Shown: positions 12,048 through 61,520, counted from the stretch's first letter. The stretch: 64,000 bases of DNA from Candidatus Parcubacteria bacterium (GCA_034666125.1 JAXDML010000009.1:975-64974); one strand, 5' to 3'. Notes: generated by a model from the letters alone, not told the origin. A program made the numbers and translations.

Positions 12048-13475
12048 CTAATCCAATCGCGGGAACAGGTTCTCCGGCTTCTTGTTCTCGCGGACCGTAG
12101 TAAGAATGGCTTCGGAAGTCGCGGGCATGGCGGGAGCGAGATGCGCGGCGACCTTCGCGAGGTGCCGGACGAGCTTCTCGATGTCGGCGAGCGCCTCGGC
12201 CTTCGTGGACTGGTCCTTGATTTTCTTATACGGCTCCGTGCTCGTCATGTACTCGTCGCCCTTGCCGATATGCTCGAAGATAAGGTCCATCGCTTCATTG
12301 AAGCGGTATGCTTCCACCTTCTTGAAGAAGGCGTCCTCGACGCTCATATCCTCGTCGGTGAGTACGACCGGACCCGGCAGATGCTCCTCCGCGAGCTTCA
12401 TCACCCGCGCGACCAGGTTACCAAGGCCGTTCACCAAGTTCGCCGTGTATGCCTCCCTCAGCCCTTCCTCCGTAACATCCGAGTCCTCGAAGGGATGCAC
12501 GTGCCGGAGCACCAGGTACCGGACAGCGTCCACGCCGTACGTGTCCGCAAGCGCCACAGGATCGATGACGTTCCCCAAGGACTTCGACATCTTCTGCCCG
12601 CCGGAATTGATGAACCCGTGTATGAATATCTGCCTGGACGGCGCGACTCCGGCCGACATGAGCATCGCCTGCCACATCGCCGACTGCTGGCGCAGGTTGT
12701 CCTTCCCGGCGAGCTGTATGCCCGGCCACCACTTCTGGAATCCACCTTCCTCCCGCGGCCAGTTGATGACGGAAATATAATTCACGAGCGCATCGAACCA
12801 CACGTACATGACATGCTCATCGTCCCCCGGCACCGGCACGCCCCACGGGAGCTTCTCCTTACGTCGGCTGATGCTGAAGTCCTTCAGGCCGCGTTCCACG
12901 AATGAGCGGATCTCGTTCATGCGCACGTCGGGCACGACGAAGTCGGGTCGCGCGGCGTAGAGCTTCAGGAGCGGCTCCTGGTACTTCGAGAAACGAAAAT
13001 AGTAATTCTCCTCCTTAATGAGCTGTATCTCGAGATGCGGATGTATGACGCACCGTCCGTTGTCGAGTTCCGAGTCGGTCTTCTCGAGCTCGCACCCGAT
13101 GCAGTATTTCACTTCATACATCGCCTTATAGATGTCGCCGGCCTGCTCGCAGCGCTTCCAGAACGCCTGCGCGGCCGCCTTGTGTCCCGGGCTCGTCGTC
13201 CTCGTGAACGCGCTGTACGAGATGTTCAGGCGGTCCACGAACGCCTTGAACCGCGCCGCATACTCGTCGACGTACGCCTGCGGGTCCTTCCCCGTTTCCT
13301 GCGCCTTCTGCAGGATCTTGGTGCCGTGCTCGTCGGTGCCGGTATTGAAGAATACTTCCTCCCCCCGCAGTCGTGCGGCGCGCGCGAGCACATCCGCCTC
13401 GACGAATTCGAGCGCGGTACCGAGGTGCGGGTCCGCGTTCACGTATGGAAGCGTCGTCGTGAAGTACTTCGCCAT
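12048..13475 (-). CDS. metG: Methionyl-tRNA synthetase (short form, no C-terminal tRNA-binding domain)
   Basis: HIGH-like motif (PYVNADPHLGT) and KMSKS; class I fold. Confidence 0.9.
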   Translation of the reverse strand: MAKYFTTTLPYVNADPHLGTALEFVEADVLARAARLRGEEVFFNTGTDEHGTKILQKAQETGKDPQAYVDEYAARFKAFVDRLNISYSAFTRTTSPGHKAAAQAFWKRCEQAGDIYKAMYEVKYCIGCELEKTDSELDNGRCVIHPHLEIQLIKEENYYFRFSKYQEPLLKLYAARPDFVVPDVRMNEIRSFVERGLKDFSISRRKEKLPWGVPVPGDDEHVMYVWFDALVNYISVINWPREEGGFQKWWPGIQLAGKDNLRQQSAMWQAMLMSAGVAPSRQIFIHGFINSGGQKMSKSLGNVIDPVALADTYGVDAVRYLVLRHVHPFEDSDVTEEGLREAYTANLVNGLGNLVARVMKLAEEHLPGPVVLTDEDMSVEDAFFKKVEAYRFNEAMDLIFEHIGKGDEYMTSTEPYKKIKDQSTKAEALADIEKLVRHLAKVAAHLAPAMPATSEAILTTVRENKKPENLFPRLD

Positions 13476-14574: not shown

Positions 14575-15960
14575 CTACGCGAGCGCGTCACGAAGCCTCT
14601 CGGCGACCTCGGCGACTGAAAGCCGCTCCTGTTCCCCGCTGTCGCGGTGGCGGAGCGTGACCGTGTCCGTAAGGCTCGGATTCTCGCCGAGCGTGTCGAA
14701 GTCGACCGTGATGCAGAACGGCGTGCCGATCTCGTCCTGGCGGCGGTACCGTTTGCCGATGTTCCCGTTATCGTCCCAGGCGATCGCCGGATGCACCTTG
14801 CGGAGCAGATCGCGCACTTCGCGCGCCTTCTCCACCAGTTCCGGCTTGTTCTTCAGGAGCGGCGACACCATCGCCTTCACCGGGGCCACTTTCGGCGCGA
14901 GCGCGAGGTACGTGCGCGTCTCGCCGCCGAGATCGTCTTCGCGGTATGCGTCGAGGAGAATGAATAGGAACGCGCGTCCCACGCCGCCCGAGGTCTCGAT
15001 TATCCACGGCATGATCTTCTCTCCCGACTCATCGATATACGTCATGGGCACGCCCGAATATTCCTGATGTCGACGCAGGTCCCAGTCGCCGCGGTGATGG
15101 ATGCCCCATGCCTCCTTCCATCCGAACGGGCTCTGATATTCGATATCCCATGCTTCCTGCGCGTAGTGCGCGCGTTCGTGCTCCTCGTGCTGCCTGAAGC
15201 GCAAATTCTCCTCCCGGATGCCGAGCCCCCGATACCAGTCCATGCTGCGCTGCTTCCAATATTCATACTGCTTCTTCCCTTCTCCGGCTTCCGGACGGAT
15301 GTAGTACTGAAGCTCCATTTGCTCGAATTCGCGTACGCGAAAAAGGAAGTTCCCGGGGACGATCTCATTGCGGAACGCCTTGCCTATCTGTGCGATGCCG
15401 AACGGCAGCTTCGGATGCATCGAGTCGAGCACGTTCTTGAAGTTCACCTGCACGCCCTGGGTAATCTCGCCGCGAAGGTATACGGACTCCTTTTGGCCTT
15501 CGACCGCGCCGATGCCGGCTTCGACCAGAAGATTGAAGACCTTGGGTTCCGTAAGCGGGTTACCGTCAGGACTCTTCATCCCTTTCTCCGCCATGAGCTT
15601 TCCCATGTCTTTCACGGAAAGGTTATGCGTATCCACACCCGCATCTTCAAGCAAATGGTCGGCACGATAACGCTTATGCGTTACCTTGTCCTCGACCAGC
15701 GGGTCGGTGAATCCTTCCGTATGACCGGAAGCCTCCCATACGCGGGGTGTCATGAGGATCGATGCGTCGACGCCGTAGACGTCATCGCGCTCGTATACAA
15801 AGTTCTGCCACCAAGAGCATTTGATGTTCTCGTTAAGAGCGACGCCGAGCGGACCGTAGTCATACGTACCCGCAAGCCCGCCGTATATCTCGGAGCCCGG
15901 AAATACGAATCCGCGCCTCTTGCAAAGCGAAACGATCTTCTCCATCAGGTTCTCTTTCAT
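14575..15960 (-). CDS. glyS: Glycyl-tRNA synthetase, alpha2 (eukaryote/archaeal-like) type
   Basis: Class II motifs and anticodon-binding domain. Start set at MKENL because the longer ORF would overlap the upstream gene. Confidence 0.85.
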   Translation of the reverse strand: MKENLMEKIVSLCKRRGFVFPGSEIYGGLAGTYDYGPLGVALNENIKCSWWQNFVYERDDVYGVDASILMTPRVWEASGHTEGFTDPLVEDKVTHKRYRADHLLEDAGVDTHNLSVKDMGKLMAEKGMKSPDGNPLTEPKVFNLLVEAGIGAVEGQKESVYLRGEITQGVQVNFKNVLDSMHPKLPFGIAQIGKAFRNEIVPGNFLFRVREFEQMELQYYIRPEAGEGKKQYEYWKQRSMDWYRGLGIREENLRFRQHEEHERAHYAQEAWDIEYQSPFGWKEAWGIHHRGDWDLRRHQEYSGVPMTYIDESGEKIMPWIIETSGGVGRAFLFILLDAYREDDLGGETRTYLALAPKVAPVKAMVSPLLKNKPELVEKAREVRDLLRKVHPAIAWDDNGNIGKRYRRQDEIGTPFCITVDFDTLGENPSLTDTVTLRHRDSGEQERLSVAEVAERLRDALA

Positions 15961-15967
15961 ATATAGG

Positions 15968-17869
15968 TTATTGCGTGACCAGGCCCTCTCCGGAACGATA
16001 TGCCGGATCTTCCGAGAACTGCGCCGTGAGGCGCTCACTCTTTACCGAGACCGGCCCCTGCGTAAAGCGGTCGGTCGCGGTAAAGGTCTGCTCCGGTATC
16101 AGGACGGGACTGATCCCGACCTGGGAAAGGCTCGGCAGGAAGGCGATCTGGAACGAGGCCTTTCCGGTCGCGCCGCCGGCCAGGTCGTTCAGCCGCCAGG
16201 TCACGGTACGCGTACGCTCGTCATACGTCACGCTGCCCGCAGGGCTGACCGCGCCCGTGAAGCGGACGTACGAAGGAAGGACCATGACCGCCTGCGCGCC
16301 GGCGATGGCGTTGACCGAATTCACGGCCGACAGTTCGACGGTATACGTCGTTTCCGCATTCGCCTTCGGCGGCACCGGGCCGGTATTCGTGAACGGCCCG
16401 ACGCTTCGGAGGAGACGCGAGGTGAAGTTCACGCTCGTGCCGACCTTCACCGTCTTCGTGACCGTGGACGAGACCGCCTCCGGCACGCCCGTCTGGCTGA
16501 GGCGGTTCCCCGCGATGGAGACGGTAAGCATCACGACCGGGCTCGGGACGCCGGCAAGCGCCGCGGCCGATTTCGGAATGAACGAGAATGAGCCGTTCCC
16601 CGTGTCGCCCGGAAGGAGCTGCACGAGCCCGGGGTCCGTATCCTTCGAGAAGAGCAGGGTCGAGTCGCTCGAACGGTAGAAGCCGCTCTGCGCGAAGACC
16701 TGCGCCGGATCGAACCCGCTGCCCGAGAACCGTACGCTTATCTGCGCGTCCGACACCGGAACGTTAAGGTTGTTCTTCCACGAGAGGGTCCCGTTCACGG
16801 ACTGCCCGGGCGGCGCGAGTACCGTGTCCGCCGTATCGCGGTTGAGCGACAGGATCGTCGCGAGGAACGGCCGCGCGACCTGCACGAGCGCGTCCGTACT
16901 CGCGTACGGGAGCGCGATTGTCGTCGCGTCGGCGGACGTGCGTGTACCGGCGCTGATGCGGAACACGCGCTCGTCCGTATCCTGCCCCGTAAGCACCCCG
17001 TTTATGCTGACGTTCTGCTGCGCCCCCGGAGCGAGCGTGCCGAGGCTGAAGAGCGTTCCCGTGGACGGACGCGGGATGGTGTTCGTGGGCGTGAATCCTG
17101 GGGGATAGCTCACCTCGACGCCCACATTCTCGAGCGGCGTCGGCGCGTTGCTCCGCGCCGTCACGACAAGCGTGAACGGCTCCCCCGATGCCGCTTCCCT
17201 CGGCGCGGCGACGGTGAGCGAGAGCGGCGAGGTCGTCACCGTCACCGTATACTCCCCTTCCGTGACGAAAGACGCATTCGACGCTTCGGCCTTGTACTCC
17301 ACGCGTATCGGCACCGTAAGCACCTGGTTCTGGGCGCCGAACAGGACCGCGTTCACCGTGCGCGACGCTTCCGCACCGGGGCCGAGATCGCCGAGCGTGT
17401 CGGTGTAGTGGTCGAAAGGCTGCGTTTTGTCGACCGCCTGCCGGGTGCCCGCAGGCAGGTCGATGACGATGTTCGTGTTCGTGATGGTCGCCGGATTATT
17501 GTTCTTCACCTTCACGACGATGGCCACCGTGTCCCCGCTCCCGATCGAGGGAGGCCCGTCGGTGTCGATGGCCACGTTCTCCGCCGAGATGGAACGCGAC
17601 CCGTGCAGGAACAGGAAGGCGGCGACGCCGCCGGCGATGAGGAAGAATCCCACGGCGACCACGAGAAAACGGCTCGTCCACGGCATGGCCGCCCATCCGC
17701 GCGGGGTCTTCACGATTGGAGGAGGCGGAGGCGTCCAGCCCTGTTGAACGGGTACCGGACGCTGGATGTCGTGGCGCAAGGGTTGCTGCACCGCGGACTC
17801 GACTGGTCCCGGCGCATAGAGGCGCTTCCGCATCTCCTCAAGCGGGCTGTCGGCGTCTTCGGGAGGCAT
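15968..17869 (-). CDS. Large T/S/V-rich surface protein with N-terminal TM anchor (633 aa)
   Basis: N-terminal hydrophobic anchor followed by beta-rich, low-complexity repeats. First gene of a nine-gene surface operon. Confidence 0.55.
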   Translation of the reverse strand: MPPEDADSPLEEMRKRLYAPGPVESAVQQPLRHDIQRPVPVQQGWTPPPPPIVKTPRGWAAMPWTSRFLVVAVGFFLIAGGVAAFLFLHGSRSISAENVAIDTDGPPSIGSGDTVAIVVKVKNNNPATITNTNIVIDLPAGTRQAVDKTQPFDHYTDTLGDLGPGAEASRTVNAVLFGAQNQVLTVPIRVEYKAEASNASFVTEGEYTVTVTTSPLSLTVAAPREAASGEPFTLVVTARSNAPTPLENVGVEVSYPPGFTPTNTIPRPSTGTLFSLGTLAPGAQQNVSINGVLTGQDTDERVFRISAGTRTSADATTIALPYASTDALVQVARPFLATILSLNRDTADTVLAPPGQSVNGTLSWKNNLNVPVSDAQISVRFSGSGFDPAQVFAQSGFYRSSDSTLLFSKDTDPGLVQLLPGDTGNGSFSFIPKSAAALAGVPSPVVMLTVSIAGNRLSQTGVPEAVSSTVTKTVKVGTSVNFTSRLLRSVGPFTNTGPVPPKANAETTYTVELSAVNSVNAIAGAQAVMVLPSYVRFTGAVSPAGSVTYDERTRTVTWRLNDLAGGATGKASFQIAFLPSLSQVGISPVLIPEQTFTATDRFTQGPVSVKSERLTAQFSEDPAYRSGEGLVTQ

Positions 17870-23703: not shown

Positions 23704-24707
23704 TGCGAGGTGCGTACGAAGACGCTTGGGATGGGGACCGCGGTGACTCCCGCGGCGCCTCCGGTGAACGTTGACGGGAGCGCTCCAAAGGTGAAAGCGA
23801 CGCTCCAGCCGAGGTTCGGCGCGGTGCCGAGCGCCGAGGGGTAGCCCAGGATCGGAACGAGCGAGGCGACGGCGAAAGTGCGGATGGTCGGAGCCGTCGC
23901 GTTCGTGACGTACGCGAGCCAGTACATGCCGGGGTCGAGCGTTACCGGCAGGCCGGTCGTATACGTCTTCACGCCGGTGGTCGCGCCCGACTGCGTACCG
24001 GCGTCAACGACGAGCGCCCCAGGATACAGGTTCCCGTTATCGGCGTAGATGCCGATGCGCGGCGTGCTTCCCGTGCCGAGGGTCGTCACGTTGATGGCCA
24101 TCTGGTCGATGGTCGTGATCTTGCTTATGACGAACGGGATCGCGAAGAGCGTGTTCGCGGCTGGTGCGCCGGTGGTGAGGGCGGTTCCGGTCACTTCGGC
24201 GGTGTACCACTGGTTAAGCGTCGAACCCTTGGTCCGGTACGCGGAGATATCGAAGTCGCGGCGCTGGAGGGTGCGCCAGTTCGTGCCATCGGATTGAAGC
24301 GTTACCGACTCGCCGCGCTGCGCGAGCTGTATCGTCAAAAGTCCGTCGATGGTCTCCGAAGCGTTCGGGTCGATCGTCACCAGGTTCGCGAGTGCCGCGT
24401 CGATCTTCTTTATGAAATACACCTGTTTGGGGGTGGTTGCCGAAGCTGCGGGAAGCGTGAGGGTGATCGCGCCCGAGGTCGCGTCCGCAAGAACGACGGT
24501 CTCGGTCGCGGTCAGGGTCGCGTTACCGGTCTTAGTGACCTGGTTGAGATCAAGGTCACTGAAGGCATGTCCCGGGTTCGGCGTCGTTGCCAGCACGAAA
24601 CGGACGATCGAGAACGTGATGCCGATAAGGAGTACCGCGCTCAACAGCACGTTGAGCGGCGTGACGAAACGGGAGGCCTTACTCGGCCGGAGGCGCATCT
24701 GGTGCAT
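23700..24707 (-). CDS. Membrane-anchored secreted beta-rich protein
   Basis: N-terminal TM (LNVLLSAVLLIGITFSIV). Confidence 0.5.
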   Translation of the reverse strand: MHQMRLRPSKASRFVTPLNVLLSAVLLIGITFSIVRFVLATTPNPGHAFSDLDLNQVTKTGNATLTATETVVLADATSGAITLTLPAASATTPKQVYFIKKIDAALANLVTIDPNASETIDGLLTIQLAQRGESVTLQSDGTNWRTLQRRDFDISAYRTKGSTLNQWYTAEVTGTALTTGAPAANTLFAIPFVISKITTIDQMAINVTTLGTGSTPRIGIYADNGNLYPGALVVDAGTQSGATTGVKTYTTGLPVTLDPGMYWLAYVTNATAPTIRTFAVASLVPILGYPSALGTAPNLGWSVAFTFGALPSTFTGGAAGVTAVPIPSVFVRTSQ

Positions 24708-26199
24708 CGTTTTCTAATGGTACTACGGGCTCCGGCTCGGGTTCCGGGCTCTCAACAGGCGGCCCCGGATCCTCGTCCGGCGGTACCTCGATCACCGGCA
24801 CCGGAGAAGGCTCCCCTTCTGCGGGCGGGACCTCGGACGTGGTCGACGCGGTCGAGGACGCAAGACGTGCCGCGAGTATGCCCGGGATGTCCTCAGGGAG
24901 CGCGACGGTGACGAGCGTCTGGCCGAGGGAGCCGCGCGCTATGCACTGGGACAGGTACAGATTGCTGCAGTGCCATTTCTGCGTGGTGTTAACGAGCATG
25001 AAGCGCCCCGGGAAAAGCGTTTTCGCTTCGAGAGCGACCGTGCCGTCGTCCCCGACGATAGCCGCGTACACGTTCGACGCTTCCGGTGCGGTATCCGGAT
25101 CATCGAGCCAGTACACCTGGACGGCGCTACGGGGCTCCGAACTGCTGATGACCATGAGGTCCGTCATGGCATAGAGGTCCTTGTCGGCGAAGAAGCGTGT
25201 CACGGCAAGCGGATCGTAACCAACGCGCAGCTCCATCCCGTCGAGGTACACCGGCGGCGCGCCGTCCAGGGTCGCGCTGCTCCGCACGCTTATCTGGAAG
25301 CTCGACAGATTGGTCCAGGACGTCTCGGGCGGGACCGGGATAGAGAAGGTCGTCGGCACGACGTGCTCCTTGTCGAACGTGCCGAGCGAATGCCAGGTGG
25401 TGCCGTCGAGCGTGTAGCGGACCTCGATGAAGGCCGCGTTCGGAAGGACCACGGGCACCTCTTCGGGCGGCGCGGGTCCGTCCGGAAGCGGATCCGGTTC
25501 GGGGGCCGGAGGCTCTTCCTCCTGCGCATATGCGGTGGCGACGAGACGTTTCAGCAGCGACACGGGACCCGGGTCTGCGGCAGGCTCAGGAGTGGATTCA
25601 GGAGCGGTATCTGCCGGTTCTTCAACGGGCGGCTCCGCAGGCGGAGCTGGAGGTTCTTCCGATGCCGGAGCCTCTTCAAGAGGCGTGTCCTTGGGCTCGA
25701 TAAGCTCGAACGACGGCTCACTCCCTGCGGGGGCATCGAGCACCTCCCGGCTCGACGAGGCGAAATCCTCTCCCGAAACGACCGGCGGGTCCTCCGCTCG
25801 CTCAGTGCTCCATGCGAGGAGAAGCGTGAGGGTCTTCGGCTCCGTCCCCGGAGGGATATCCGCGGTGAAGCCGCCGCAGAATATCTCGGACACCGTGTCG
25901 GCAGGCAGGATCGCCGAGGATCCTTCGGCGAAGGCGTGCAGGTTCGATGCGTCTTCGGTCAGTTCGCCCTGCGCGCGCTCGGGATTGTCCCATCCCCCGA
26001 GGCAAGCGCTCGGGTACAGGGTCAGCGTCTCTGCGTTCAATACGGAACGTATGAAAAGGAAGCTTGAGCCGCCGGCGAGGACCAGCATGGTGACCGAAAA
26101 GACCACGAAACGCCTCGAGAGACGCCGCGTACGTGCAGGAATAGAGGGCTGGATATCGTGATACAGCCGGCTCTTAGGTCTTCGGCGGAAGAGACTCAT
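24679..26199 (-). CDS. Membrane-anchored Pro/Glu-rich surface protein (506 aa)
   Basis: N-terminal TM; long P/E/A-rich low-complexity region. Confidence 0.5.
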   Translation of the reverse strand: MSLFRRRPKSRLYHDIQPSIPARTRRLSRRFVVFSVTMLVLAGGSSFLFIRSVLNAETLTLYPSACLGGWDNPERAQGELTEDASNLHAFAEGSSAILPADTVSEIFCGGFTADIPPGTEPKTLTLLLAWSTERAEDPPVVSGEDFASSSREVLDAPAGSEPSFELIEPKDTPLEEAPASEEPPAPPAEPPVEEPADTAPESTPEPAADPGPVSLLKRLVATAYAQEEEPPAPEPDPLPDGPAPPEEVPVVLPNAAFIEVRYTLDGTTWHSLGTFDKEHVVPTTFSIPVPPETSWTNLSSFQISVRSSATLDGAPPVYLDGMELRVGYDPLAVTRFFADKDLYAMTDLMVISSSEPRSAVQVYWLDDPDTAPEASNVYAAIVGDDGTVALEAKTLFPGRFMLVNTTQKWHCSNLYLSQCIARGSLGQTLVTVALPEDIPGILAARLASSTASTTSEVPPAEGEPSPVPVIEVPPDEDPGPPVESPEPEPEPVVPLENDAPDAPPAE

Positions 26200-26273: not shown

Positions 26274-26840
26274 CTATAGACCGCTCGCGATGATGCCGTT
26301 ATTTACCCTGGCGATATAGGTTTTTCGTCCGTTCTCGACCGCCGCAAGCGCCTCCTTCCCGTAGTCGCAGAATGTCCCCGGCATCTCGCCCGCGTCGAGT
26401 CCTAGGATGTGGAGCACGCGGAGAGCCGCCAGGCACTCCGCCGCGTCCTGTTCCTCCTCCGGAAGTTTCGCGAGCGCGTCCGCGAACGAGAGCGCTTCCG
26501 TGTAGAGACGCGGTTCGGCCTCCTCCCCATGCGACAGACGCTGCATGAGTTCCGAGACGCGGGCGAAGCGTTTGCGGCTCTCGAAGGAGAGTTCCTTCGA
26601 CCAGTCGCGGAGCGAAAGCGCCCCCGCGAGGCGCCAGCCATCCTTCGCACGTATGAGCGCGATGTTGCTTTCCATCAGGGTCTGGAGCCCGGCAGCCATC
26701 TTCGAGCCCGGCTTCCGGAGTCCTGCCGTGCGCGCCCGGATGATCCCGAAGTCCGGAGTCGCGAGCACGACCGAGGCGTCGTGCTCCTTCACGGGATGGC
26801 GCGCGAGCACGAGGACCTCCGTACGGTACTTATGCTGCAT
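26274..26840 (-). CDS. recO: RecO-like recombination mediator (short, 188 aa)
   Basis: N-terminal OB-fold pattern typical of RecO (EVLVLARHPVKEHDASVVLATPDFGIIRARTAGLRKPGSKMAAGLQ). No zinc finger. Confidence 0.55.
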   Translation of the reverse strand: MQHKYRTEVLVLARHPVKEHDASVVLATPDFGIIRARTAGLRKPGSKMAAGLQTLMESNIALIRAKDGWRLAGALSLRDWSKELSFESRKRFARVSELMQRLSHGEEAEPRLYTEALSFADALAKLPEEEQDAAECLAALRVLHILGLDAGEMPGTFCDYGKEALAAVENGRKTYIARVNNGIIASGL

Positions 26841-29800
26841 GGATATCGAACGCCACCCTCCCTATCGAAAGTTCGGCTGCATACGCTGCGTCGGCGGGTG
26901 CGTCGAAGGCGATATCCGTAACGCCCGGGAGGGTTCCGGTGAGGGTATCCTTCGCGGTAGCGCTCGCGCGTACGTGCGCGAGGTCCTTCGGCGAGAATCC
27001 TTCCTCCTTCCGCGCGTCGGCAAGCGCGCGCATGAATTCCCGCACGTCCCCTTCCCGCACGAGTTCCGGCGTGAGTTCCGTGTCGAGCGACGCTTCCGCA
27101 GCCCCGGTACGTATCTCCTTAACGTTCACTTCCTCCGCAAGAAGGGTCTGCAGTTCAATTGAAAGTTCTCCCGGTATCGACAGCGCCGCGAGCGGCTGAC
27201 GCACCTTGATGTTCGCCTTCTGGCGGAGCATGAGGCCTTCCGATGCAAAGGCTCGTGCGCGCTCCATGCCGAGCATAAGTCCCGTATCATCCGGCGTACC
27301 GCCGAACACTTTCTTCAAGAAGCCGACTCGCTCTACCTCAGGCCAATCAGCAAGGTGCACGCTTTCGGGGTCGTTCTCCCCTTTTACGCCCCGGTATACC
27401 TCATCGGCGACGAAGGGCATCACCGGGGCTATGACCTTTGAGAGCTCCAGGAGCACATGGCGGAGCGTATGAAGCGCCGCCTGCTTGTCGGTCTCGTGCG
27501 CGCTCTTCACGCGATCGCGCGACCGGCGCACGTACCACGTCGAGAGGTCGCTGACGAAGTCGCGCATCGGACGGACCGCACGGGGCATCTCGTACCGGTC
27601 GAAGGCGTCGGTCGCGGTGGCGGTGAGCTCCCTGAGACGCGCAAGTATCCACCGGTCGAGCGGATGTGCTGCGAAGTCGGGAGTCGCCGTATCGTCAAGG
27701 TCGTCCTTATAGAGGGCGTAGAACGCGTGGATATTGCGGAGCATGTTGACGGTCCGGTTCTGCGCCTCCTTTACCTCCTCGTCGCGGAACACCAGGTCCT
27801 CCGCCTGCATGACGACGCTTCCCATGAGGTAGAGGCGGAACGCGTCGGCGCCGTACGTGTCGAAGAGCGCATACACATCCGTATAGTTCCTCTTGCTCTT
27901 CGAGAGCTTCTCGCCATCGGAGCCGAGAATGTTGCCCGTCACCGCGACGTTCTTGAAAGGCGCCCGATCGAAGAGCTCGACCGACATCGCATGCATGTAA
28001 TAGAACCAGGCGCGCGTCTGCGCGATGTATTCGGAGACGAAATCGCCCGGCGAGCAGTTCTCGAACTCCGCGCGGTTCTCGAACGGGTAATGGTATTCAG
28101 CGAACGGCATGGATGCCGATTCCACCCAGCAGTCGACCACTTCTGGTATGCGCGTGAGGGGCCTTCCGTCCTCTGATTCGAGACGTACCTCGTCGATATA
28201 CGGGATGTGGAAGTCGAGCTCATAGTCGCGATTGTGCGGGATCGGGACGAAGTTCAGATCGACTACCTTCCCGCGCTCAGGATACGCGATGCGTACGGCG
28301 CGGTCCGGCAAGGCGCCCTCAACGACGGCATAAAGTGCCCACAGCGGCTCCCCGTGCGAGATGATCAGGATGTTTTTGCTCTGATATTTCTCCTCAAGCG
28401 AGTATAGAAAGTCGCCCACGCGCTTGCGCACATCATTGATGGACTCCCCTCCATCGGGACCTTGATAAAAGCGTGAAAGGTCGCCTTCCGGGGTATCAGG
28501 ATATATCTCAAAGAATTCCTTGAGGGGCCGTCCATTGAATACGCCGTGGTTGTATTCCGCTATAGCACCTTCCTCTATGACCTGCTGAGGTGCGAGTCCG
28601 AGCTCCTTCGCGACGATATCAGCCGTCTCGCGCGTGCGTACGTACGGCGAGGTGACGATAAGGTCGATATTCTTTTCCTTGAGACTTCCCGCTGCCTTTT
28701 TGACCTGTTCCTTCCCCTCTTCCGTAAGATGAACAGGATCGTGCGGGTCAGCGCTGATCAGGCTGTCGCGATTGCTATCTGCTTCTCCATGCCGGAGCGT
28801 ATAGTACGCATTACCGCTCTTCTTCCTACGAGCCTTCAACTCTTCGAGCGAGCCGATGACCGTTACGTTCCCGTCCGCGTCCTTCCATATGGGAAGCGGA
28901 CTCGCCCAGAACCGGTTGCGGGAGATGGTCCAGTCAGGAGCGCTTTCGAGATTGTGCTTGAAACGTCCGTGCTTAAGGTGCGCGGGCGACCAGGCGATCT
29001 TCTCGTTCTCCTCAAGAAGACGCTGCTTCACTGACTGGATGTCGATGAACCAGCTCGACACGGCGTTATATATAAGAGGAGTGCCGCAACGGTAGCAATG
29101 CGGGTACGAGTGGGTATGGCGTGCTTTCGCGAAAAGTAGCTCTCGTGTTTCGAGATCCGCCTTAATCTCAGTCTCTGCTTTCTTTATGTACTTGCCGCGC
29201 AGGAATTCCGGGGCATCGTCGTTATACGTCGCGTTCGGGTTCAAGAGCGGTATCATCGGCAATCCTTCCTTAAGCCCGAGCGCGTAGTCGTCCTCACCGT
29301 ATATGACCGCCGTATGCACGATGCCGGTGCCGTCCTCAGCCGTAACGAAAGCAGCTGAAAGGACTTCCCACTTCTTCCCGGCATGTGCCGCGACTTTCGG
29401 AATCTCATAGAGCGGCTCGTATGCAAGGCCTACGAGTTCGCTGCCCTTGAAGGATTTCTCCTTCGTTCCGAACTCGCCTGCAAGCTCCGCCGCTTCCGCG
29501 AAGTATTGGGTCGACATAATGTAGTGGCCTTTTGTGAGATGTAGGATCCCGCCTCCGACTTCCTGGTTACGGTCCGTACCAACACGTACAAGGACGTAGT
29601 CGATGTCTTGCCCGACGGCGAGCGCGACATTTCCGGGAAGCGTCCACGGCGTCGTCGTCCACGCAAGGAGAGAGGTATCCTCTGGCAGCTTGTCCGAACT
29701 CCTTATCTTGAACTTCGCCGTCACCGCTTCCTCGGTGATGTCCTTATACGTATTGTCCATCGCGATCTCGGCCTTGGCGAGCGGCGTTTCGCAGTGCGGA

Positions 29801-30342
29801 CAGTACATGAGCACTTTCCTGCCCTCGTACAGGCGCCCTTTCTTATGTATCTCCTTGAGGGCCCACCATACCGATTCGATGAACGCGCTGTCCATCGTCT
29901 TGTATGAGTTATCGAAATCGACGAATCGCCCGACACGCTCGACGTAGCGCTTCCAGTCGTGCACGTACTCGAGCACCTTCGAGCGCGCGATGTCATTGAA
30001 CTTCTCGACGCCGAGCTCGAGGATATCCTTCTTGGACTTGAGTCCGAGCTCCCGCTCTACGATGGACTCTATGGGAAGGCCGTGCGTATCCCACCCCCAT
30101 CGGCGACGCACGCGGTATCCGCGCATCGTCTTGTACCGCGGAACCACGTCCTTGGAAACCGAGGAAAGGAGCGAGCCCTGGTGGGGCAACCCCGTGGCGA
30201 ACGGCGGGCCGTCGTAGAAGACGAACTCGCCCTTAGGCGCGGGTTTCTCGAGCGTCTTTTCGAATATCTTGCTCTGCTGCCAGAACGCGAGCACTTCTTC
30301 CTCGCGCCGCGCTACGTCGGACTTTCCCCGTTCTTCGGTCAT
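26830..30342 (-). CDS. ileS: Isoleucyl-tRNA synthetase (eukaryote-like type) carrying an inserted histidine-phosphatase (RHG) domain
   Basis: PPFATGLPHQGS (HIGH-type), TPWT editing-domain motif, KLSKS, anticodon-binding domain. Residues about 510-700 form a complete histidine-phosphatase fold (RHGEADSN ... TSPYVRTRETA ... ISHGEPL). Confidence 0.9.
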   Translation of the reverse strand: MTEERGKSDVARREEEVLAFWQQSKIFEKTLEKPAPKGEFVFYDGPPFATGLPHQGSLLSSVSKDVVPRYKTMRGYRVRRRWGWDTHGLPIESIVERELGLKSKKDILELGVEKFNDIARSKVLEYVHDWKRYVERVGRFVDFDNSYKTMDSAFIESVWWALKEIHKKGRLYEGRKVLMYCPHCETPLAKAEIAMDNTYKDITEEAVTAKFKIRSSDKLPEDTSLLAWTTTPWTLPGNVALAVGQDIDYVLVRVGTDRNQEVGGGILHLTKGHYIMSTQYFAEAAELAGEFGTKEKSFKGSELVGLAYEPLYEIPKVAAHAGKKWEVLSAAFVTAEDGTGIVHTAVIYGEDDYALGLKEGLPMIPLLNPNATYNDDAPEFLRGKYIKKAETEIKADLETRELLFAKARHTHSYPHCYRCGTPLIYNAVSSWFIDIQSVKQRLLEENEKIAWSPAHLKHGRFKHNLESAPDWTISRNRFWASPLPIWKDADGNVTVIGSLEELKARRKKSGNAYYTLRHGEADSNRDSLISADPHDPVHLTEEGKEQVKKAAGSLKEKNIDLIVTSPYVRTRETADIVAKELGLAPQQVIEEGAIAEYNHGVFNGRPLKEFFEIYPDTPEGDLSRFYQGPDGGESINDVRKRVGDFLYSLEEKYQSKNILIISHGEPLWALYAVVEGALPDRAVRIAYPERGKVVDLNFVPIPHNRDYELDFHIPYIDEVRLESEDGRPLTRIPEVVDCWVESASMPFAEYHYPFENRAEFENCSPGDFVSEYIAQTRAWFYYMHAMSVELFDRAPFKNVAVTGNILGSDGEKLSKSKRNYTDVYALFDTYGADAFRLYLMGSVVMQAEDLVFRDEEVKEAQNRTVNMLRNIHAFYALYKDDLDDTATPDFAAHPLDRWILARLRELTATATDAFDRYEMPRAVRPMRDFVSDLSTWYVRRSRDRVKSAHETDKQAALHTLRHVLLELSKVIAPVMPFVADEVYRGVKGENDPESVHLADWPEVERVGFLKKVFGGTPDDTGLMLGMERARAFASEGLMLRQKANIKVRQPLAALSIPGELSIELQTLLAEEVNVKEIRTGAAEASLDTELTPELVREGDVREFMRALADARKEEGFSPKDLAHVRASATAKDTLTGTLPGVTDIAFDAPADAAYAAELSIGRVAFDIHAA

Positions 30343-30716: not shown

Positions 30717-32402
30717 CTACATCCTTTCCGGTACGGGAATGCCGAGCAGCCACAGCCCATTCTTCATCGTGTTGGCGAACGCACGCACGAGCGAGAGCTT
30801 GTGCGCCTCGTAGTTGCCGCCGATGATACGCTCCTTCGCATAAAAAGAATTCCACTCGCCCGCAAGCTGGGTGAGGTACTGCGCGACGACATGCGGCGCT
30901 TCGAGTGATTGTGCCTTTTTCACGACTTCCGGGAAACGCGTGATGAGACGTGCGATATCGTACGCCTCATCCGGCACATCGGTCGAATCCGCCGCTTCGC
31001 CCGCGTTCGCGAGTATGGACATCGCGCGCACGTACGCGTACTGGAGATACGGCCCCGAATCGCCGTCGAGTGAAAGCGATCTTTCCGGGTCGAAGGCGAT
31101 GTTCCCGCCGAGCGCGCTTCGCAGGATCATGTACTTAAGTGCGCCGACGGCGACCTGCTCGGCGACGACCGGATCGGGATTGCGCTCGTTCGCCGCCGTT
31201 ATGAGGTCGCGTATGACCTCTGCTGCCGTGATGACGTTCCCTTTGCGCGACGACATCTTTCCGGTGGTGAGACGCAAAAGCCCGTGCGCGATGTGGGAGG
31301 TCTTAGCGGCGAGCTTCGGGGCGATATCCTCGAGTGCGGCAAGCACTACCTTGAAGTGGCTTATCTGCTCCACTGCCGTTACGATCACCACTCGATCCGT
31401 CTCGACGCGCTCCTCCTTAAGGAAGGCGAGGCCGATATCCTTCGTCTCGTAGGTCGGATTCCCGCGCGAGGTGATGAAGACGAGAGTGAAGAGCCCTTTC
31501 TTCTCTCCCTTATATACGATTGCTCCCTCGCTTTCCTCGAAGATGCCCTGCGCGAGGCTGTCGCGCACGACACGGACGCCGGTGCGGGTCGTATCGCTGT
31601 CAAAGAACGTATAGTCATGACGCGTGCCGAGTATCTTAAAAAGCCGCTCGAATTCCTCCATGGAGACTTCCCTGCCTTTCTGCCATATATATAGGAGCGC
31701 ACGGTCGTCTTCCGGAAGCGCCGCCGCCTCTTCCTGCCTGTCAACGATCTCGTATATCTTCGTATTCAGGCCGTCTATTTCTGCTTTTGCCGTCTCGCTC
31801 TCCTCATACGCCGTCGCACCCCGTGTGTACGCCTTTCCTATCTCGCCGGCGGACGCGATATCCGTAATGCCATCCTTCCGGAGCGCCCATAACGCCTTGG
31901 CTACCTGCGGCCCCACGTCCCCGCCGAACGTGTCGCGGAGCGTATGTGCGCCCGAAGCTTCAAGCAGCCTCGAGAGCGATTCGCCCACGATCGCGCCGAC
32001 CAGGTGCCCGAGGTGCATCTCCTTGAACGGATTCGGATTGCCATATTCGATCATCACTCGCTCCCCTTTCCGGATGTCATTACGACCCCACACTTCTTTT
32101 GCTTCCATGGCGGCTTCGAGTTCGCGCGCGATCGCCTCACCCGAAAGCGTGATGTTCACGAAGCCCGGTCCTGCCGCCTCGACATTCGCTGCGTCTGCGC
32201 CGAGCGCGCCTCGTAATGCAGGAACGAGCGCATCCGCGATCTCGCGAGGCGGCTTGCCGAGCGCCTTGCTTGCGGCCATCGCCGCATTCGTCGCGAAGTC
32301 GCCGTGGGAGAGCTCCGCCGGCCATTCGATGGCGAACCCGACCTCGCTTGCTCCGAGCTTCGCGATCTCGGCCCCGATAACGCTTCGTATCCGTTCGATC
32401 AT
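30717..32402 (-). CDS. argS: Arginyl-tRNA synthetase
   Basis: N-terminal Add-1 domain, HVGH-type motif (MHLGHLVG), DALR anticodon-binding domain. Confidence 0.9.
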   Translation of the reverse strand: MIERIRSVIGAEIAKLGASEVGFAIEWPAELSHGDFATNAAMAASKALGKPPREIADALVPALRGALGADAANVEAAGPGFVNITLSGEAIARELEAAMEAKEVWGRNDIRKGERVMIEYGNPNPFKEMHLGHLVGAIVGESLSRLLEASGAHTLRDTFGGDVGPQVAKALWALRKDGITDIASAGEIGKAYTRGATAYEESETAKAEIDGLNTKIYEIVDRQEEAAALPEDDRALLYIWQKGREVSMEEFERLFKILGTRHDYTFFDSDTTRTGVRVVRDSLAQGIFEESEGAIVYKGEKKGLFTLVFITSRGNPTYETKDIGLAFLKEERVETDRVVIVTAVEQISHFKVVLAALEDIAPKLAAKTSHIAHGLLRLTTGKMSSRKGNVITAAEVIRDLITAANERNPDPVVAEQVAVGALKYMILRSALGGNIAFDPERSLSLDGDSGPYLQYAYVRAMSILANAGEAADSTDVPDEAYDIARLITRFPEVVKKAQSLEAPHVVAQYLTQLAGEWNSFYAKERIIGGNYEAHKLSLVRAFANTMKNGLWLLGIPVPERM

Positions 32403-36750: not shown

Positions 36751-39152
36751 CTACCACAGCACGTCCCCAATTCCCCATAGTTGATGCGTTACTGCTCACG
36801 CCGCCCGAGGCCGCCGATGGCCACATCGGCATCTGCACGAATACTGCGGCGCCGGGACAGGTGTTCAACGACATCTCCGAGGAGAACCGTCCTGCGGTCT
36901 CGGTCCTGGGCCCTCTGATCGTGAGCCGCGACGGGACCGAACGGATGATCCTGAATGCGCTTGTGCATCCGACCGTCACGTATCTCATCCTCTTTTCCGA
37001 GGAGTCGCTCACCTTCTCTCCGAGCACCAATCTGCTGCTTGCCCTGATGCACGGTCTCGACGGCACGCGCGAGGGAAACTACATCGCCAAGGGAGAAGCC
37101 GCCTCGGCCCACCTCCCGAACCTTTCCAAGGACATCGTGGACCTGTTCCGCGAGAACATCACCGTGCTGCCGCTCTTCATGTCGCAGAACAAGCAGAGCG
37201 CGGCGATTACTGCCGAATATCTTGAATGGCTCGGGTCCCGCGTGCCGGAAGACGTCCTCTCCTTCCTTAAGGAGGCGAACTCGAAGGATAAGAAATACTA
37301 CGATGCGCTGAACGGGCTCATCACGCTCCTCAAGTCGGTACCGCAAAAGAAGAAGGCTATGGTCGAGCTCGATCCCAAGGACTTCCAGCAGCTGCAACCA
37401 CCCAAGATAGCCATCCCGGAAGACCACGCCCCCTCGCCAGCCCTCTTCCGCGTCACGCTCGAAGACAACCTCCTTCGTCTCGACATCGCGGTCGGCGGCA
37501 AATCGTACTTCATGCGCGGAGATGACGACTTCCGCATCGAATATTCCCTGATGAAGTTCCTGGCCGAACGCAAAGAATTGCTTACGCCGCGCGAACAGCT
37601 CCTTATCGGCGCCGAGCTCAACCGCCTCAACGTCGAACGGACTGCCGGCATCGTTTCTGAGCCATTCATAGTGCCAAGTGACGTCGCAGGCACTGAAGAG
37701 ATACTCCTTGAGCCGGCTACGGATCTTATCCCTGACCAGGAGTATTACTACAAGATAGGATTGAAGGACGACGAAGTCTCGGTGATGTGCATGGCCTTCG
37801 ACATCTGCACCGAGGTCTTCGACCTGCGCTCGAAGGGCGCGACCGGGCTCTTCGACTGGCTGGCCGAGAAGGACCGCTTCCAGGTGTACGAGATGGATAT
37901 CCTGCACCGCATGGACGTGGGTGGGCAGATCGGGCGAGCCGTCATCGCCGCGCGCTTCGGCTACTCGTTCGTACAGGACTTCTCGAGCATTTTCAAGGTG
38001 AACACTGAGACCCTGCCGCTCCTGGCCGCCGAAGGCGACTCGTTCCTCGACGTGCACCGCTCTACGCTGCTCAAGGTCTATACCGAAGGCATCACCGAGG
38101 AACACGGGGACGCACGCAAAGGCCTGTCGCGCACCGCGATCGCGCTGGCGATCTATCGTAACGCCAGGCAGGCCTTTGACCGTCTTCCCGAGATCTACAA
38201 GCAGGGCGACCTCTCGACCGAGGAGATGCGCGCGGCATATAAGGCGCAGCTCCTGCGCCTCGATCATGACGGTGACTACAGCTACGGCGAGCGCACGCGG
38301 GTCCATTTCGGTTTCGATCAGCTCGAGAGGGCGATCTCGATACTGCAAAAGGATCCTTCCCGACCTACGCTCATCCAGCGATTCGATCCGACCGTGGACA
38401 TGGGCGCGTCGCTCGATCCGGATACCGGACGGGCGGTCTATACGCATGATCCGTGCCTGACCCACGATGTCCTCTTTTGTATAGACGGGAAACTGCATTC
38501 GTTCCATATCGCTCGCGCGCATAACCTGGCGAACGCGTACCCTGAGAACGTCTTCGGTCTCTTCGATGCATACGCGAGTACCGTACGGGAGGCTCTCAAG
38601 CTCGATTCCGGCGACCTGTACATGCTCTCGAGCCGCGGGAACATCCTTCTTCTCACGGAAGAACAGCGGGTGCGCAAGATCATCGCCGAACCTTCCAAGC
38701 CTATCGGCGAGGTCGACCGCGCGAGCGGGCCGAGACTCTTCGGGGAGAACGTGCGCACCGCAGCAGGGATGGGCGGCGTATCCTACAGCACGGCCCCGCT
38801 TGAGGAAGTTCCCCTGTATGCGCATCCGGTCATCGAGCGCGTGAAAGCCTTCGAAGGCGTCGATACCCTTGCGCGCGCGACCGGCTATCTTAAGCAGAAG
38901 GGCGGCAGTCACAACAATCCGATCCTCACCACGTACCAGGCCGGGCACTCCGATCCGCAGGCAGACCATCTCGCGTTCTTTCAGGCGAATGTCTTCGGCG
39001 AGAAGCTCCACGCGACCGCTGTCTTTACCAATCATGAGCCCGTGCCGGCAGACGACCTGAAGCTCGTTTCGGCCCTTGCCACGACGTACGCGAAGGTCCT
39101 GGACGTCCCGCTCGGGAATGGAAGTATCTTTTACATCAATGGAAACGCCTGA
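36747..39152 (+). CDS. Large fusion protein: about 375-aa domain of unknown function fused to a divergent thymidylate-synthase/pyrimidine-hydroxymethylase (ThyA-fold) domain
   Basis: ATGA start/stop overlap with the preceding gene. ThyA-like blocks FGYSFVQDF, DQLERAISILQKDPSRPTLIQRFDP (compare DQI..[16 protein letters not shown]), DPCL catalytic Cys (compare PCH), HIARAHNLANAYPENVFGL (compare YQRS.D..LG.PFNIASY). The antisense 748-aa ORF is rejected on composition. Confidence 0.6.
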   Translation: MTTTARPQFPIVDALLLTPPEAADGHIGICTNTAAPGQVFNDISEENRPAVSVLGPLIVSRDGTERMILNALVHPTVTYLILFSEESLTFSPSTNLLLALMHGLDGTREGNYIAKGEAASAHLPNLSKDIVDLFRENITVLPLFMSQNKQSAAITAEYLEWLGSRVPEDVLSFLKEANSKDKKYYDALNGLITLLKSVPQKKKAMVELDPKDFQQLQPPKIAIPEDHAPSPALFRVTLEDNLLRLDIAVGGKSYFMRGDDDFRIEYSLMKFLAERKELLTPREQLLIGAELNRLNVERTAGIVSEPFIVPSDVAGTEEILLEPATDLIPDQEYYYKIGLKDDEVSVMCMAFDICTEVFDLRSKGATGLFDWLAEKDRFQVYEMDILHRMDVGGQIGRAVIAARFGYSFVQDFSSIFKVNTETLPLLAAEGDSFLDVHRSTLLKVYTEGITEEHGDARKGLSRTAIALAIYRNARQAFDRLPEIYKQGDLSTEEMRAAYKAQLLRLDHDGDYSYGERTRVHFGFDQLERAISILQKDPSRPTLIQRFDPTVDMGASLDPDTGRAVYTHDPCLTHDVLFCIDGKLHSFHIARAHNLANAYPENVFGLFDAYASTVREALKLDSGDLYMLSSRGNILLLTEEQRVRKIIAEPSKPIGEVDRASGPRLFGENVRTAAGMGGVSYSTAPLEEVPLYAHPVIERVKAFEGVDTLARATGYLKQKGGSHNNPILTTYQAGHSDPQADHLAFFQANVFGEKLHATAVFTNHEPVPADDLKLVSALATTYAKVLDVPLGNGSIFYINGNA

Positions 39153-60303: not shown

Positions 60304-61520
60304 CGTGCGTACGTGGCTTCAGTATATAAGCGGCGACTTCGTCTCGGACCCGCGATCACCGACTCGGATCCCTTGCCGGTCAGCAGCAGGGCGTCCCCCG
60401 GACCGAGCAGCTTCTTTGCCAGAGCGATTGCGTCCTCCCTCTTGCGGACCGTATGCACTTCATGCGCGTCGGAAAAGCCCTTCCGGATGCCGTAAGCGAT
60501 GCTCTCTTCACGCTCATCGAACGGATTCTCTTCAGTAACGATGCTCACGTCCGCGTACCGCTCCGACAGCGCGGCGAGCAGCGGCCGCTTGTAACGATCC
60601 CTTCCCCCGCCTGCCGCGCCGAACACGTGAATGACCTTCCCCGTAGTCTTCCGGCGCACGAAGGAGAGTTGCGATTCGAGCGCGGCCAGCGTATGCGCGT
60701 AGTCGACGATAACGAGAGGGCGTGCGGATACGATCTCGCAGCGTCCGGGAACCGGCGCCTGCACACGCATCGCCTCCTTCACGTCATTAAGGGATGCGCC
60801 AAGCGCGGTAGCGAGACCTGCGGAGAAAAGTATATTGCGCGCGGCGAACGGACCGCCGAGAGACGCAGTCACGACTGCGCGCTCGTTCCTTCGAACGATC
60901 GTGAGCGTGGTGCGTGTCAGCGTCGACACGATTCCCGTTGCGCGCAGGTCGCCGTTTCCTCCGCAGATCCGCATCATAAGGCCGTGCGGCAGGCGATCTC
61001 GAAGGATGTTCAGAGCGTCTTCCGAAACGACAAGTCCCAGGCTGCCCGGGAGCAGCTCGCGAGCAAGCGATGCCTTCGACTCGCGATAGCGCTCGAAGCT
61101 CCCATGTGCCTCGACGTGTTCGGGCGTCACGTTCGTGACCCCTACGAGCATGAAGCCGATGAAGCGATGTCGGTGCTGGAGCATTCCCTGGGACGTGACC
61201 TCGATGACGGCATGGGTCGCTCCGTTCGCGATCGCCGCCGCAAGGAATCGGTGGAGTCCCATACGGCCGGGCGTGCTTATCTTGGTCTCGTTCCTCCGTT
61301 CCGTCAGTCCGTCATGTATCGAGACCGATGAGTAGTGCGCGACCCGATGGCCTGCGGACCGAAGGATGCCTGCCGTGAAGGCAACCGAGGAGCTTTTGCC
61401 GTCCGTTCCCGTGATCCCGACAGTGACGATTCGCTTACCGAGCCTTCCGAAGCGCAGGAATGCGAAGGCGGGGTATACGATATGGAGCCCGTTCTTAAGC
61501 CGCTGGATCGACATGGTCAT
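60273..61520 (-). CDS. murE: Mur ligase, MurE-like (UDP-MurNAc-tripeptide synthetase)
   Basis: P-loop GITGTDGKSS and the DYAHT motif (VIVDYAHTLAAL). Confidence 0.75.
   Translation of the reverse strand: MTMSIQRLKNGLHIVYPAFAFLRFGRLGKRIVTVGITGTDGKSSSVAFTAGILRSAGHRVAHYSSVSIHDGLTERRNETKISTPGRMGLHRFLAAAIANGATHAVIEVTSQGMLQHRHRFIGFMLVGVTNVTPEHVEAHGSFERYRESKASLARELLPGSLGLVVSEDALNILRDRLPHGLMMRICGGNGDLRATGIVSTLTRTTLTIVRRNERAVVTASLGGPFAARNILFSAGLATALGASLNDVKEAMRVQAPVPGRCEIVSARPLVIVDYAHTLAALESQLSFVRRKTTGKVIHVFGAAGGGRDRYKRPLLAALSERYADVSIVTEENPFDEREESIAYGIRKGFSDAHEVHTVRKREDAIALAKKLLGPGDALLLTGKGSESVIAGPRRSRRLYTEATYARCLFGTLSSA

Follow-up and report, generated by a model that had tools for sequence, protein, structure and literature searches.

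A histidine phosphatase domain inserted in isoleucyl-tRNA synthetases of Patescibacteria, with a free-standing counterpart encoded beside ileS

Sequence analysis of 64,000 nucleotides (nt) of DNA from a Candidatus Parcubacteria bacterium (GCA_034666125.1, JAXDML010000009.1:975-64974; this whole stretch is called the window below) revealed an ileS gene whose product, a type-2 isoleucyl-tRNA synthetase (IleRS2) of 1170 amino acids (aa), carries a histidine phosphatase domain in an internal loop. Domains of the same subfamily occur at this site in IleRS proteins of many other Patescibacteria, in some of them in more than one copy, and the subfamily is also found as a separate gene which in most cases examined adjoins an ileS gene that lacks the insert. 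We consider it probable, on the basis of sequence comparisons, that the inserted segment is an active accessory phosphatase dedicated to IleRS, the fused form of an IleRS-linked phosphatase subfamily of the PhoE/PspA/CobC type.

The open reading frame (ORF) runs without interruption on the minus strand (Table 1), and its product is identical to a protein encoded on a 232-kb contig of a Candidatus Parcubacteria metagenome-assembled genome (MAG). With TIGR00392 (ileS) it scores 776.4 bits against a cut-off of 621.4, the match being split over two stretches, and its best matches in the PDB are the IleRS2 structure 8c8v, 1ile and the yeast IleRS (sequence E about 1e-189). The best solved IleRS, that of Priestia megaterium (8c8v), aligned to residues 9-488 and 703-1077 with the insert skipped. 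An AlphaFold2 (AF2) model of the whole protein has a mean pLDDT (predicted local distance difference test) of 83.9 and a pTM (predicted template modelling score) of 0.76, and the IleRS body in this model matches IleRS2 and yeast IleRS with target-normalised TM scores of 0.79-0.90. Compared with the type-2 or eukaryote-like enzymes of P. megaterium (8C8V), yeast and Candida (7D5C, 6LDK), the body is of the same type by sequence and fold (TM 0.79-0.87); these enzymes have a connective peptide 3 (CP3) of ca. 60 aa with nothing inserted and a canonical HxGH signature, whereas the window protein has an enzyme of 198 aa in CP3 and HQGS as its first class I signature. The second Rossmann half contains DCWVESASMP and KLSKS (aa 812-816, nt 27895-27909), and CP1 has the editing motifs TTTPWT (aa 229-234) and GTGIVHTA, both without variation across the family. 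Since the IleRS part keeps KLSKS, the editing motifs and the orthologous synteny, its synthetic and editing sites are predicted to be intact and the protein to be a bifunctional housekeeping enzyme.

The insert is delimited by alignment with 40 insert-less orthologs, in which column occupancy falls from 0.93 to 0.03 at aa 509-511 and returns to 0.93 at aa 708. An earlier note on this DNA had placed the domain at 28243-28815 (aa 510-700); its start at G510 agrees with the alignment, but the end lies further on, at Y707 (nt 28222). The two flanking profiles are 210-224 aa apart in enzymes with the insert versus 23-53 aa in insert-less relatives, which have a loop of ca. 4-13 residues between the VIGSLEELK... 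hairpin and LDFHIPYID.... By published domain definitions the insertion site is a loop of the CP3 subdomain, the structurally most variable part of IleRS (residues 473-534 in Candida and 459-526 in yeast IleRS), and the CP2-CP3 linker, which in the window protein is APDWTISRNRFWA (aa 468-480), lines the tRNA-CCA/reveromycin pocket (PMC7191050, PMC7955072). In the AF2 model the insert forms a compact domain with pLDDT values of 90-98. The earlier description of a single uninterrupted ileS ORF with a true in-frame domain insertion, rather than a gene fusion or frameshift, is thus upheld by the continuous ORF with its TIGR00392 score above the cut-off, by flanks of ordinary type-2 IleRS sequence and by the recurrence of the architecture.

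Table 1. Features of the ileS locus in the window (nt positions counted from the first letter of the window; aa positions refer to the 1170-aa protein).
Feature	Position (nt)	Strand	Remarks
argS, upstream neighbour	30717..32402	-	
ileS, type-2 IleRS with inserted phosphatase domain, 1170 aa	26830..30342	-	GenBank MEA2701759.1
IleRS N-terminal part, aa 1-509: first Rossmann half, CP1 editing domain, CP2, CP2-CP3 linker, first CP3 hairpin (VIGSLEEL)	28816..30342	-	
HQGS, variant class I signature in place of HxGH	30172..30183	-	aa 54-57
Inserted segment G510-Y707, 198 aa	28222..28815	-	missing from 40 insert-less orthologs
Pfam His_Phos_1 (PF00300), aa 514-687	28282..28803	-	E=7.6e-34
RHG motif: R517, nucleophile H518, G519	28786..28794	-	in all complete copies surveyed; strand 512-517 in AF2 model
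R569, second phosphate-binding Arg, in SPYVRTRETA (28621-28650)	28636..28638	-	120/120 homologs
E596, predicted general acid/base Glu	28555..28557	-	115/120 homologs; D in a minority of copies
R641, Arg of GGES...R motif	28420..28422	-	120/120 homologs; aligned with its counterpart in 4ij5 and 1ebb
H663, second catalytic His, in HGEPL (28342-28356)	28354..28356	-	120/120 homologs
C-terminal connector FVPIPHNRDYE, aa 698-708	28219..28251	-	fused form only
IleRS C-terminal part, aa 708-1170: rest of CP3 (LDFHIPYID), second Rossmann half, anticodon-binding and C-terminal domains	26833..28221	-	
RecO_N-domain ORF, downstream neighbour	26274..26840	-	synteny as at insert-less loci

Membership of the insert in the histidine phosphatase superfamily's branch 1 is evident from the Pfam match and from the presence of the RHG motif, the second Arg, the second His and the Glu. 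The His_Phos_1 match, located between the two tRNA-synt_1 halves, has a score of 117.5 bits (gathering cut-off 21.7) and covers profile positions 2-171 of 194. A profile built from 48 domains retrieved from the PDB, in full-length alignments, PspA (4ij5, 6.8e-30), PhoE (1ebb/1h2e, 2e-29), CobC and TIGAR. The earlier note had called the domain a phosphoglycerate-mutase-like histidine phosphatase; the second half of this name stands, whereas the kinship to mutases gives way to the PhoE/PspA/CobC type indicated by the profiles. A true phosphoglycerate mutase (GpmA, or dPGM, cofactor-dependent phosphoglycerate mutase) was rejected, the scores being 43-69.5 bits against NCBIfam cut-offs of 225-316; most true dPGM chains (e.g. 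1qhf, 4emb, 5um0) match only the N-terminal half of the profile (positions ca. 4-111). The closest relatives also score below cut-off (PspA NF045917, 71.7 vs 350; CobC TIGR03162, 69.6 vs 162.9), and all NCBIfam equivalogs considered, PspA, CobC, GpmA/B, archaeal dPGM and the Rv2228c type, remain far below theirs. Judged by these scores, the phosphatase represents an IleRS-associated subfamily of its own, of PhoE/PspA/CobC type.

The insert has the fold and the RHG, second Arg, Glu, GGES...R and second His motifs in common with PhoE from Geobacillus stearothermophilus (1EBB/1H2E), PspA (phosphoserine phosphatase 1 of Hydrogenobacter thermophilus, 4IJ5), the alpha-ribazole phosphatase CobC and TIGAR. 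The profile alignment of the subfamily with PhoE and PspA is gap-poor over the full length, and the sizes are similar (ca. 190-210 aa). These four relatives are free-standing metabolic enzymes without a link to a synthetase, unlike the present subfamily, which is found only inside IleRS or, in 10 of the 11 informative free-standing cases, beside ileS. The best NCBIfam match of the insert (90.6 bits) is the Rv2228c-type RNase H/acid phosphatase (PRK07238), in which a CobC-like His_Phos_1 domain is likewise joined to a nucleic-acid enzyme; that protein is an end-to-end fusion with an unrelated partner, RNase H, whereas the insert is internal and scores far below the cut-off of 326.

Conservation of the active site was assessed in 120 homologs with an identity of at least 60%. 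R517, H518 and S565 are present in all of them, as are R569, R641 and H663, and substitutions are few at G519 (conserved in 118) and E633 (117) and more frequent at N524 (98). The RHG, SPYVRTRETA and HGEPL motifs lie where the earlier note had put them (aa 517-519, 565-574 and 663-667), and R569, H663 and E596 align to the same residues in PspA and PhoE. In an alignment of 48 sequences of both fused and free forms, RHG, R569, R641 and H663 are invariant and E596 is conserved in at least 90%. Among ca. 200 domain copies from far more divergent proteins and loci, the R-H...S-R-E-E-R-H constellation shows rare exceptions only, and every complete copy in proteins with two or four copies keeps the catalytic residues. 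The mean pairwise identity among the 120 homologs is 41% for the insert versus 68-76% for the IleRS core. Such a fast-evolving scaffold around a frozen catalytic set is the signature that a functional active site under purifying selection would leave, and we infer that the insert is catalytically competent, with phosphatase activity as the predicted outcome.

The earlier note had left room for a decayed relic and for an assembly artefact. A non-catalytic spacer or a decaying relic of a past fusion would fit a scaffold that evolves about twice as fast as the IleRS core, as well as the loss of ca. 28 aa of the cap in one fused IleRS (L020); however, this reading is very improbable, as orthologs show no variation at the catalytic His and Arg residues and the catalytic set is invariant or nearly so across sequences of 25-45% identity, whether fused, duplicated or free, and in L020 too. 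The L020 domain (ORF aa 522-679; profile positions 90-117 deleted) is a natural cap-less variant whose active site could be more open. For an assembly chimera or frameshift, nothing speaks beyond the origin of the sequence from a MAG, and this explanation is practically excluded: the insertion recurs at the same site in more than 100 independent assemblies from many studies, the ORF is uninterrupted, and no break in GC content or composition was seen across the insert. An intein or mobile in-frame element was rejected as well, since there is no Hint/intein Pfam match; the insert begins with G510-N511, and H703-N704 are followed by an Arg and then by ordinary CP3 sequence.

Divergent fusions at the CP3 site of the window protein (site A) share a C-terminal connector with the motif F-x-P-[LI]-P-H-N-x-x-[YF]-E, in which P702 is conserved in 42/42, N704 in 34/42 and H703 in 31/42 sequences. 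The motif is absent from free phosphatases and from insert-less IleRS, and the Peribacteria group has a different connector. Because it is shared by the site-A fusions only, the motif argues for a single origin of the insertion at this site and for a defined docking of the domain there; the connector is likely a docking or hinge element born of the fusion. In many IleRS2 the insertion point is flanked by a four-Cys knuckle (C-x-x-C ... C-x-C, window aa 487-492 and 721-729). This knuckle did not prove to be a correlate of the phosphatase, since fused and phosphatase-free enzymes alike include some with it and some without; it is missing from the window protein.

All 120 best database homologs, on contigs of up to 742 kb, combine PF00300 with PF00133 and originate from Paceibacterota, Parcubacteria, Kaiserbacteria and unclassified Patescibacteria MAGs. 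In a GTDB sample with one genome per species, 44 of the best 80 IleRS2 loci have the insert at the same site, including those of Nomura-, Taylor-, Zambryski-, Jorgensen- and Sungiibacteria and of Peri/Peregrinibacteria. The fused form is found on a closed chromosome of 827 kb (L003, OY970126.1) and on other contigs of 0.3-0.8 Mb. The remaining loci, among them Falkow-, Morani-, Gottesman- and Magasanikiibacteria, DPANN archaea and Latescibacteria, have 23-53 aa at the site. With the insert alone as query, 46 of 1.84 billion 50%-identity representatives matched at E<=1e-30, and 104 of the best 150 representatives are IleRS proteins carrying the domain. In an IleRS tree, built like all trees here by neighbour joining only, the fused, adjacent and domain-less states are interspersed, the tree being too weak for counting events. 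Annotation does not reflect the architecture: the fused proteins bear no database name beyond 'isoleucyl-tRNA synthetase' or 'class I tRNA ligase family protein', the latter for many of them at NCBI, and a free-standing phosphatase of 197 aa (P0381) bears the JGI label 'isoleucyl-tRNA synthetase'. The domain could also be miscounted as phosphoglycerate mutase in metabolic reconstructions of candidate phyla radiation (CPR) genomes.

The same phosphatase subfamily is also encoded by a separate gene for a protein of ca. 190 aa. A profile of free-standing members retrieved 1,618 proteins at E<=1e-10, of which the best 120 are all single-domain, and free and fused forms are each other's best matches among the 1.84 billion representatives. 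The genomic context was examined for 12 free-standing members, 11 of which were informative and one of which lay on a contig that was too short. In 10 of the 11 cases (L056, L081, L084/85, L086/87, L088-L093) the free phosphatase abuts an insert-less ileS, and in nine of these ten it lies immediately upstream on the same strand. The junction ranges from a 4-nt overlap to a 20-nt gap in seven of the ten; L086/87 has an 11-nt overlap, L084/85 a 118-nt gap, and the two genes of L081 converge, their stop codons 2 nt apart. The insert-less ileS of L081 (2682-5609, minus strand) is itself divided at the CP1/CP2 boundary into two ORFs of 412 and 554 aa with a 24-nt gap and has HYAT as its HIGH motif; it could be a natural split IleRS, a pseudogene or a sequencing error.

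The gene order at the free loci is argS, phosphatase, ileS, recO, and the window has argS, ileS with the insert and the RecO_N ORF in the same order. Wherever the contig reaches, argS is found upstream (9/10), and recO lies downstream in five cases (L088-L091, L093). Since the distance between phosphatase and argS varies from 3 nt to ca. 1.3 kb, with other ORFs in between, while the boundary to ileS is mostly close, it is ileS with which the phosphatase is associated. Among the four aminoacyl-tRNA synthetase (aaRS) genes of the window only ileS has the domain, and a second phosphatase copy is absent from the 64 kb; neither the 150 best representatives nor the 120 best free-standing matches include a fusion of the domain to ArgRS or another aaRS. 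The ancestral state is presumably the free-standing one, in which case a copy of the gene would have been inserted ca. 1.5 kb downstream, into the CP3-coding region.

Several IleRS carry more than one copy of the domain. In Peri/Peregrinibacteria-type enzymes (L046, L059, P0198, P0199) the unit corresponding to window aa 504-719 is duplicated in tandem at site A, a second copy is located at ca. aa 762 in P0195 and at ca. aa 885-892, just before the anticodon-binding domain, in P0192 and P0242, and P0121 has four copies. In the domain tree copy 1 and copy 2 fall in separate clades, so the duplication is old. A further representative of the 50%-identity clusters, P0200 (1066 aa), has an IS200-type Y1 transposase domain inside CP1 (aa 340-461), a phosphatase at site A and a GNAT domain at ca. 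window aa 760, and the IleRS of these lineages seem to be especially prone to gaining domains in frame. An IleRS with an extra catalytic domain is already represented by the NCBIfam entry NF040702 ('ileS_w_GNAT'), and P0200 combines both the phosphatase and GNAT; that entry concerns another fold and chemistry, and the window protein, with 321 bits against a cut-off of 1999 and no acetyltransferase Pfam match, is not a member.

Selection appears to keep the phosphatase physically and stoichiometrically tied to IleRS, because it is present in one to four copies, at three insertion sites, or as a tightly abutting gene. The phosphatase would then be of direct service to the isoleucylation cycle, as an accessory activity for clearing, repair or protection. 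By analogy with the family, H518 would attack a terminal phosphoryl group held by R517, R569, R641 and H663, E596 would protonate the leaving group as general acid, and the phospho-histidine intermediate would be hydrolysed, with no metal needed.

Alternatively, the domain could be an unrelated housekeeping phosphatase, acting on phosphoserine, a sugar phosphate or a nucleotide, which resided in the argS-ileS block and was later fused, with co-expression as the sole benefit. By profile the domain is indeed generic, PhoE/PspA/CobC-like and below every NCBIfam equivalog cut-off, and no compensating change in IleRS was seen. The block of rplT-rpmI-infC, smpB, argS, ileS and recO is conserved as a whole, so that adjacency could be inherited rather than selected. 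Moreover, Patescibacteria genomes are compact, and reduced genomes often contain fusions. We nevertheless regard such a passenger as unlikely. Selection is required if an insertion in an internal loop of an essential enzyme is to last, and the event was repeated at two other IleRS loops and by tandem duplication, always in IleRS and never in the equally close ArgRS; both points favour direct service. The tight ileS junctions, set against the variable distance to argS, speak in the same direction, as does the finding that, across the whole protein library, each of the closest relatives is either fused to IleRS or encoded next to ileS.

Several observations weigh against a phosphatase dedicated to IleRS. 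The neighbourhood cases are related genomes that share a conserved syntenic block and are not independent, and in the eleventh informative case (L083) the free phosphatase follows argS and does not adjoin ileS, the downstream ORF being a different gene. IleRS2 of other Patescibacteria, of DPANN archaea and of Latescibacteria have no phosphatase, fused or adjacent; IleRS2 catalysis as such can therefore proceed without the domain. With conservation thresholds of ca. 85% and 80% in the two groups, the presence or absence of the phosphatase is not cleanly matched by a change at any IleRS residue. The use of three different loops is contrary to a single precise channelling geometry. The PhoE-like cap, apparent from the gap-poor full-length alignment, fits a small-molecule enzyme and weakens the options with a macromolecular substrate, and the acidic nature of the fused domains (median pI 6.1; 5.0 for the domain in the window) points the same way. 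As a test for RNA binding the pI is of limited use, since the free phosphatases are basic but so are ArgRS and IleRS of the same AT-rich genomes. Because IleRS2 of sister lineages do without the domain, its function would be an accessory one confined to certain lineages, and a role in repair, protection or regulation fits this better than one in core catalysis.

If the coupling to IleRS is direct, several substrates come into consideration. The phosphorylated 3' end of tRNA(Ile) and, at the adenylate site, a small molecule or product of nucleotide type (AMP, or a terminal phosphate of pyrophosphate type) are both tentative candidates of similar standing, and fainter chances attach, about equally, to phosphorylated IleRS itself, to a phosphorylated inhibitor, and to ligand sensing or regulation. 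The earlier note had proposed hydrolysis of a phosphorylated intermediate or alarmone, or processing of a tRNA 3' phosphate or 2',3'-cyclic phosphate, as possible roles; opening of 2',3'-cyclic phosphates is not known as a typical reaction of the histidine phosphatase fold.

Healing of the tRNA(Ile) end in cis is a sub-case of the dedicated-phosphatase explanation: the tethered phosphatase would remove a 3'-phosphate or 3'-pyrophosphate at A76 that blocks charging, such as a toxSAS lesion, with IleRS providing the tRNA specificity. The inserted-or-separate occurrence of the domain resembles that of editing modules, which are found in cis in some lineages and as separate genes in others (ProRS INS and YbaK/ProXp, AlaRS and AlaX, split ThrRS). 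These modules are aminoacyl-ester hydrolases acting on mischarged tRNA, whereas the insert has a phosphoryl-transfer fold without a known proofreading role. The insert follows within 30 residues of the CP2-CP3 linker that lines the tRNA-CCA/reveromycin pocket. The lesion is real, as toxSAS toxins pyrophosphorylate the CCA ends of tRNA and a toxin can be tRNA-specific (PMC11559606, bioRxiv 10.1101/2021.04.30.441581), and yeast branch-1 histidine phosphatases strip the terminal phosphate from single-stranded DNA and ATP in vitro (PMC2737285). However, a histidine phosphatase acting on RNA 3' ends was not found in the literature searched, the nearest relatives act on small molecules and have a full cap, the fused domains are acidic while the basic pI of the free forms tracks AT-rich proteomes, and copies at three loops leave no single defined path to A76. 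End-healing is accordingly a doubtful proposal. If it were true, these episymbiotic bacteria would possess a built-in resistance to tRNA-specific toxSAS toxins that pyrophosphorylate CCA ends, and the domain would be the first RNA-end phosphatase of the histidine phosphatase fold and a third kind of aaRS proofreading besides pre- and post-transfer editing.

The first class I signature of these enzymes is variable. Among the 120 close homologs it reads HSGS in 63, HQGS in 29 and HPGH in 7, with HxGS in 104/120, whereas phosphatase-free IleRS2 loci have H[YH]GH in 33/33. Other phosphatase-fused clades have GIHH, GVHH, AIHH, HFGN or HHGS as HIGH motif (loci L018, L022, L028, L030, L033-L036, L038, L045), and a swapped GxHH motif is tied to mupirocin hyper-resistant IleRS2 in the title of structure 8c8w. 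The variants are thus confined to phosphatase-associated IleRS, yet not universal there, in a comparison that is confounded by phylogeny. The pattern suggests that these IleRS are under unusual active-site selection.

Such signature variants, including GxHH, suggest antagonistic pressure on the enzyme and would also fit a protein phosphatase or regulatory module directed at IleRS itself, which reverses an inhibitory phosphorylation or senses a phosphorylated metabolite or alarmone. The superfamily includes the protein phosphatases SixA, PGAM5 and Sts-1, class I synthetases are targets of toxin kinases (Hip-type kinases impose inhibitory phosphorylation on GltX and TrpS), and the patchy spread of the phosphatase over lineages is what accessories in conflict or regulation typically show. 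Still, this role is improbable: the best alignment is to capped small-molecule phosphatases and not to the cap-less protein-phosphatase members, no kinase partner was seen in the ileS neighbourhoods inspected, no conserved Ser/Thr/His change in IleRS tracks the phosphatase, and two to four copies are hard to square with a sensor.

The other aaRS genes in the 64 kb, for MetRS (12048-13475), a class II enzyme with an HGTP anticodon domain (14575-16038) and ArgRS (Table 1), all on the minus strand, are of ordinary length without an extra domain. Just downstream of the recO-like gene, 24679-26199 (minus strand) encodes a Pro/Glu/Ala-rich protein of 506 aa with an N-terminal hydrophobic segment and no Pfam match. 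Two further minus-strand ORFs, of 748 aa (36789-39035) and 446 aa (61517-62857), also have no Pfam match, and the three are typical uncharacterised Patescibacteria proteins.

Both folds are already known, and so are synthetases with accessory catalytic domains as a kind; what appears new is that the accessory domain is a phosphatase and has a dedicated twin encoded on its own. The full-text literature searched held no description of an IleRS or other aaRS with a histidine phosphatase or phosphoglycerate mutase domain. Synthetases seldom gain new catalytic domains, and past gains, such as editing and the appended domains of eukaryotes, revealed new biology. Here, a phosphoryl-transfer chemistry without a known place in tRNA charging has stayed with IleRS throughout a very broad part of the Patescibacteria, a pattern which says that phosphatase activity is needed time and again by IleRS in these organisms. 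The need could arise from the repair of phosphorylated tRNA ends, the removal of a product or inhibitor, or the reversal of a modification, and each of these, if true, would add a new principle to translation quality control or to resistance against toxins or antibiotics.

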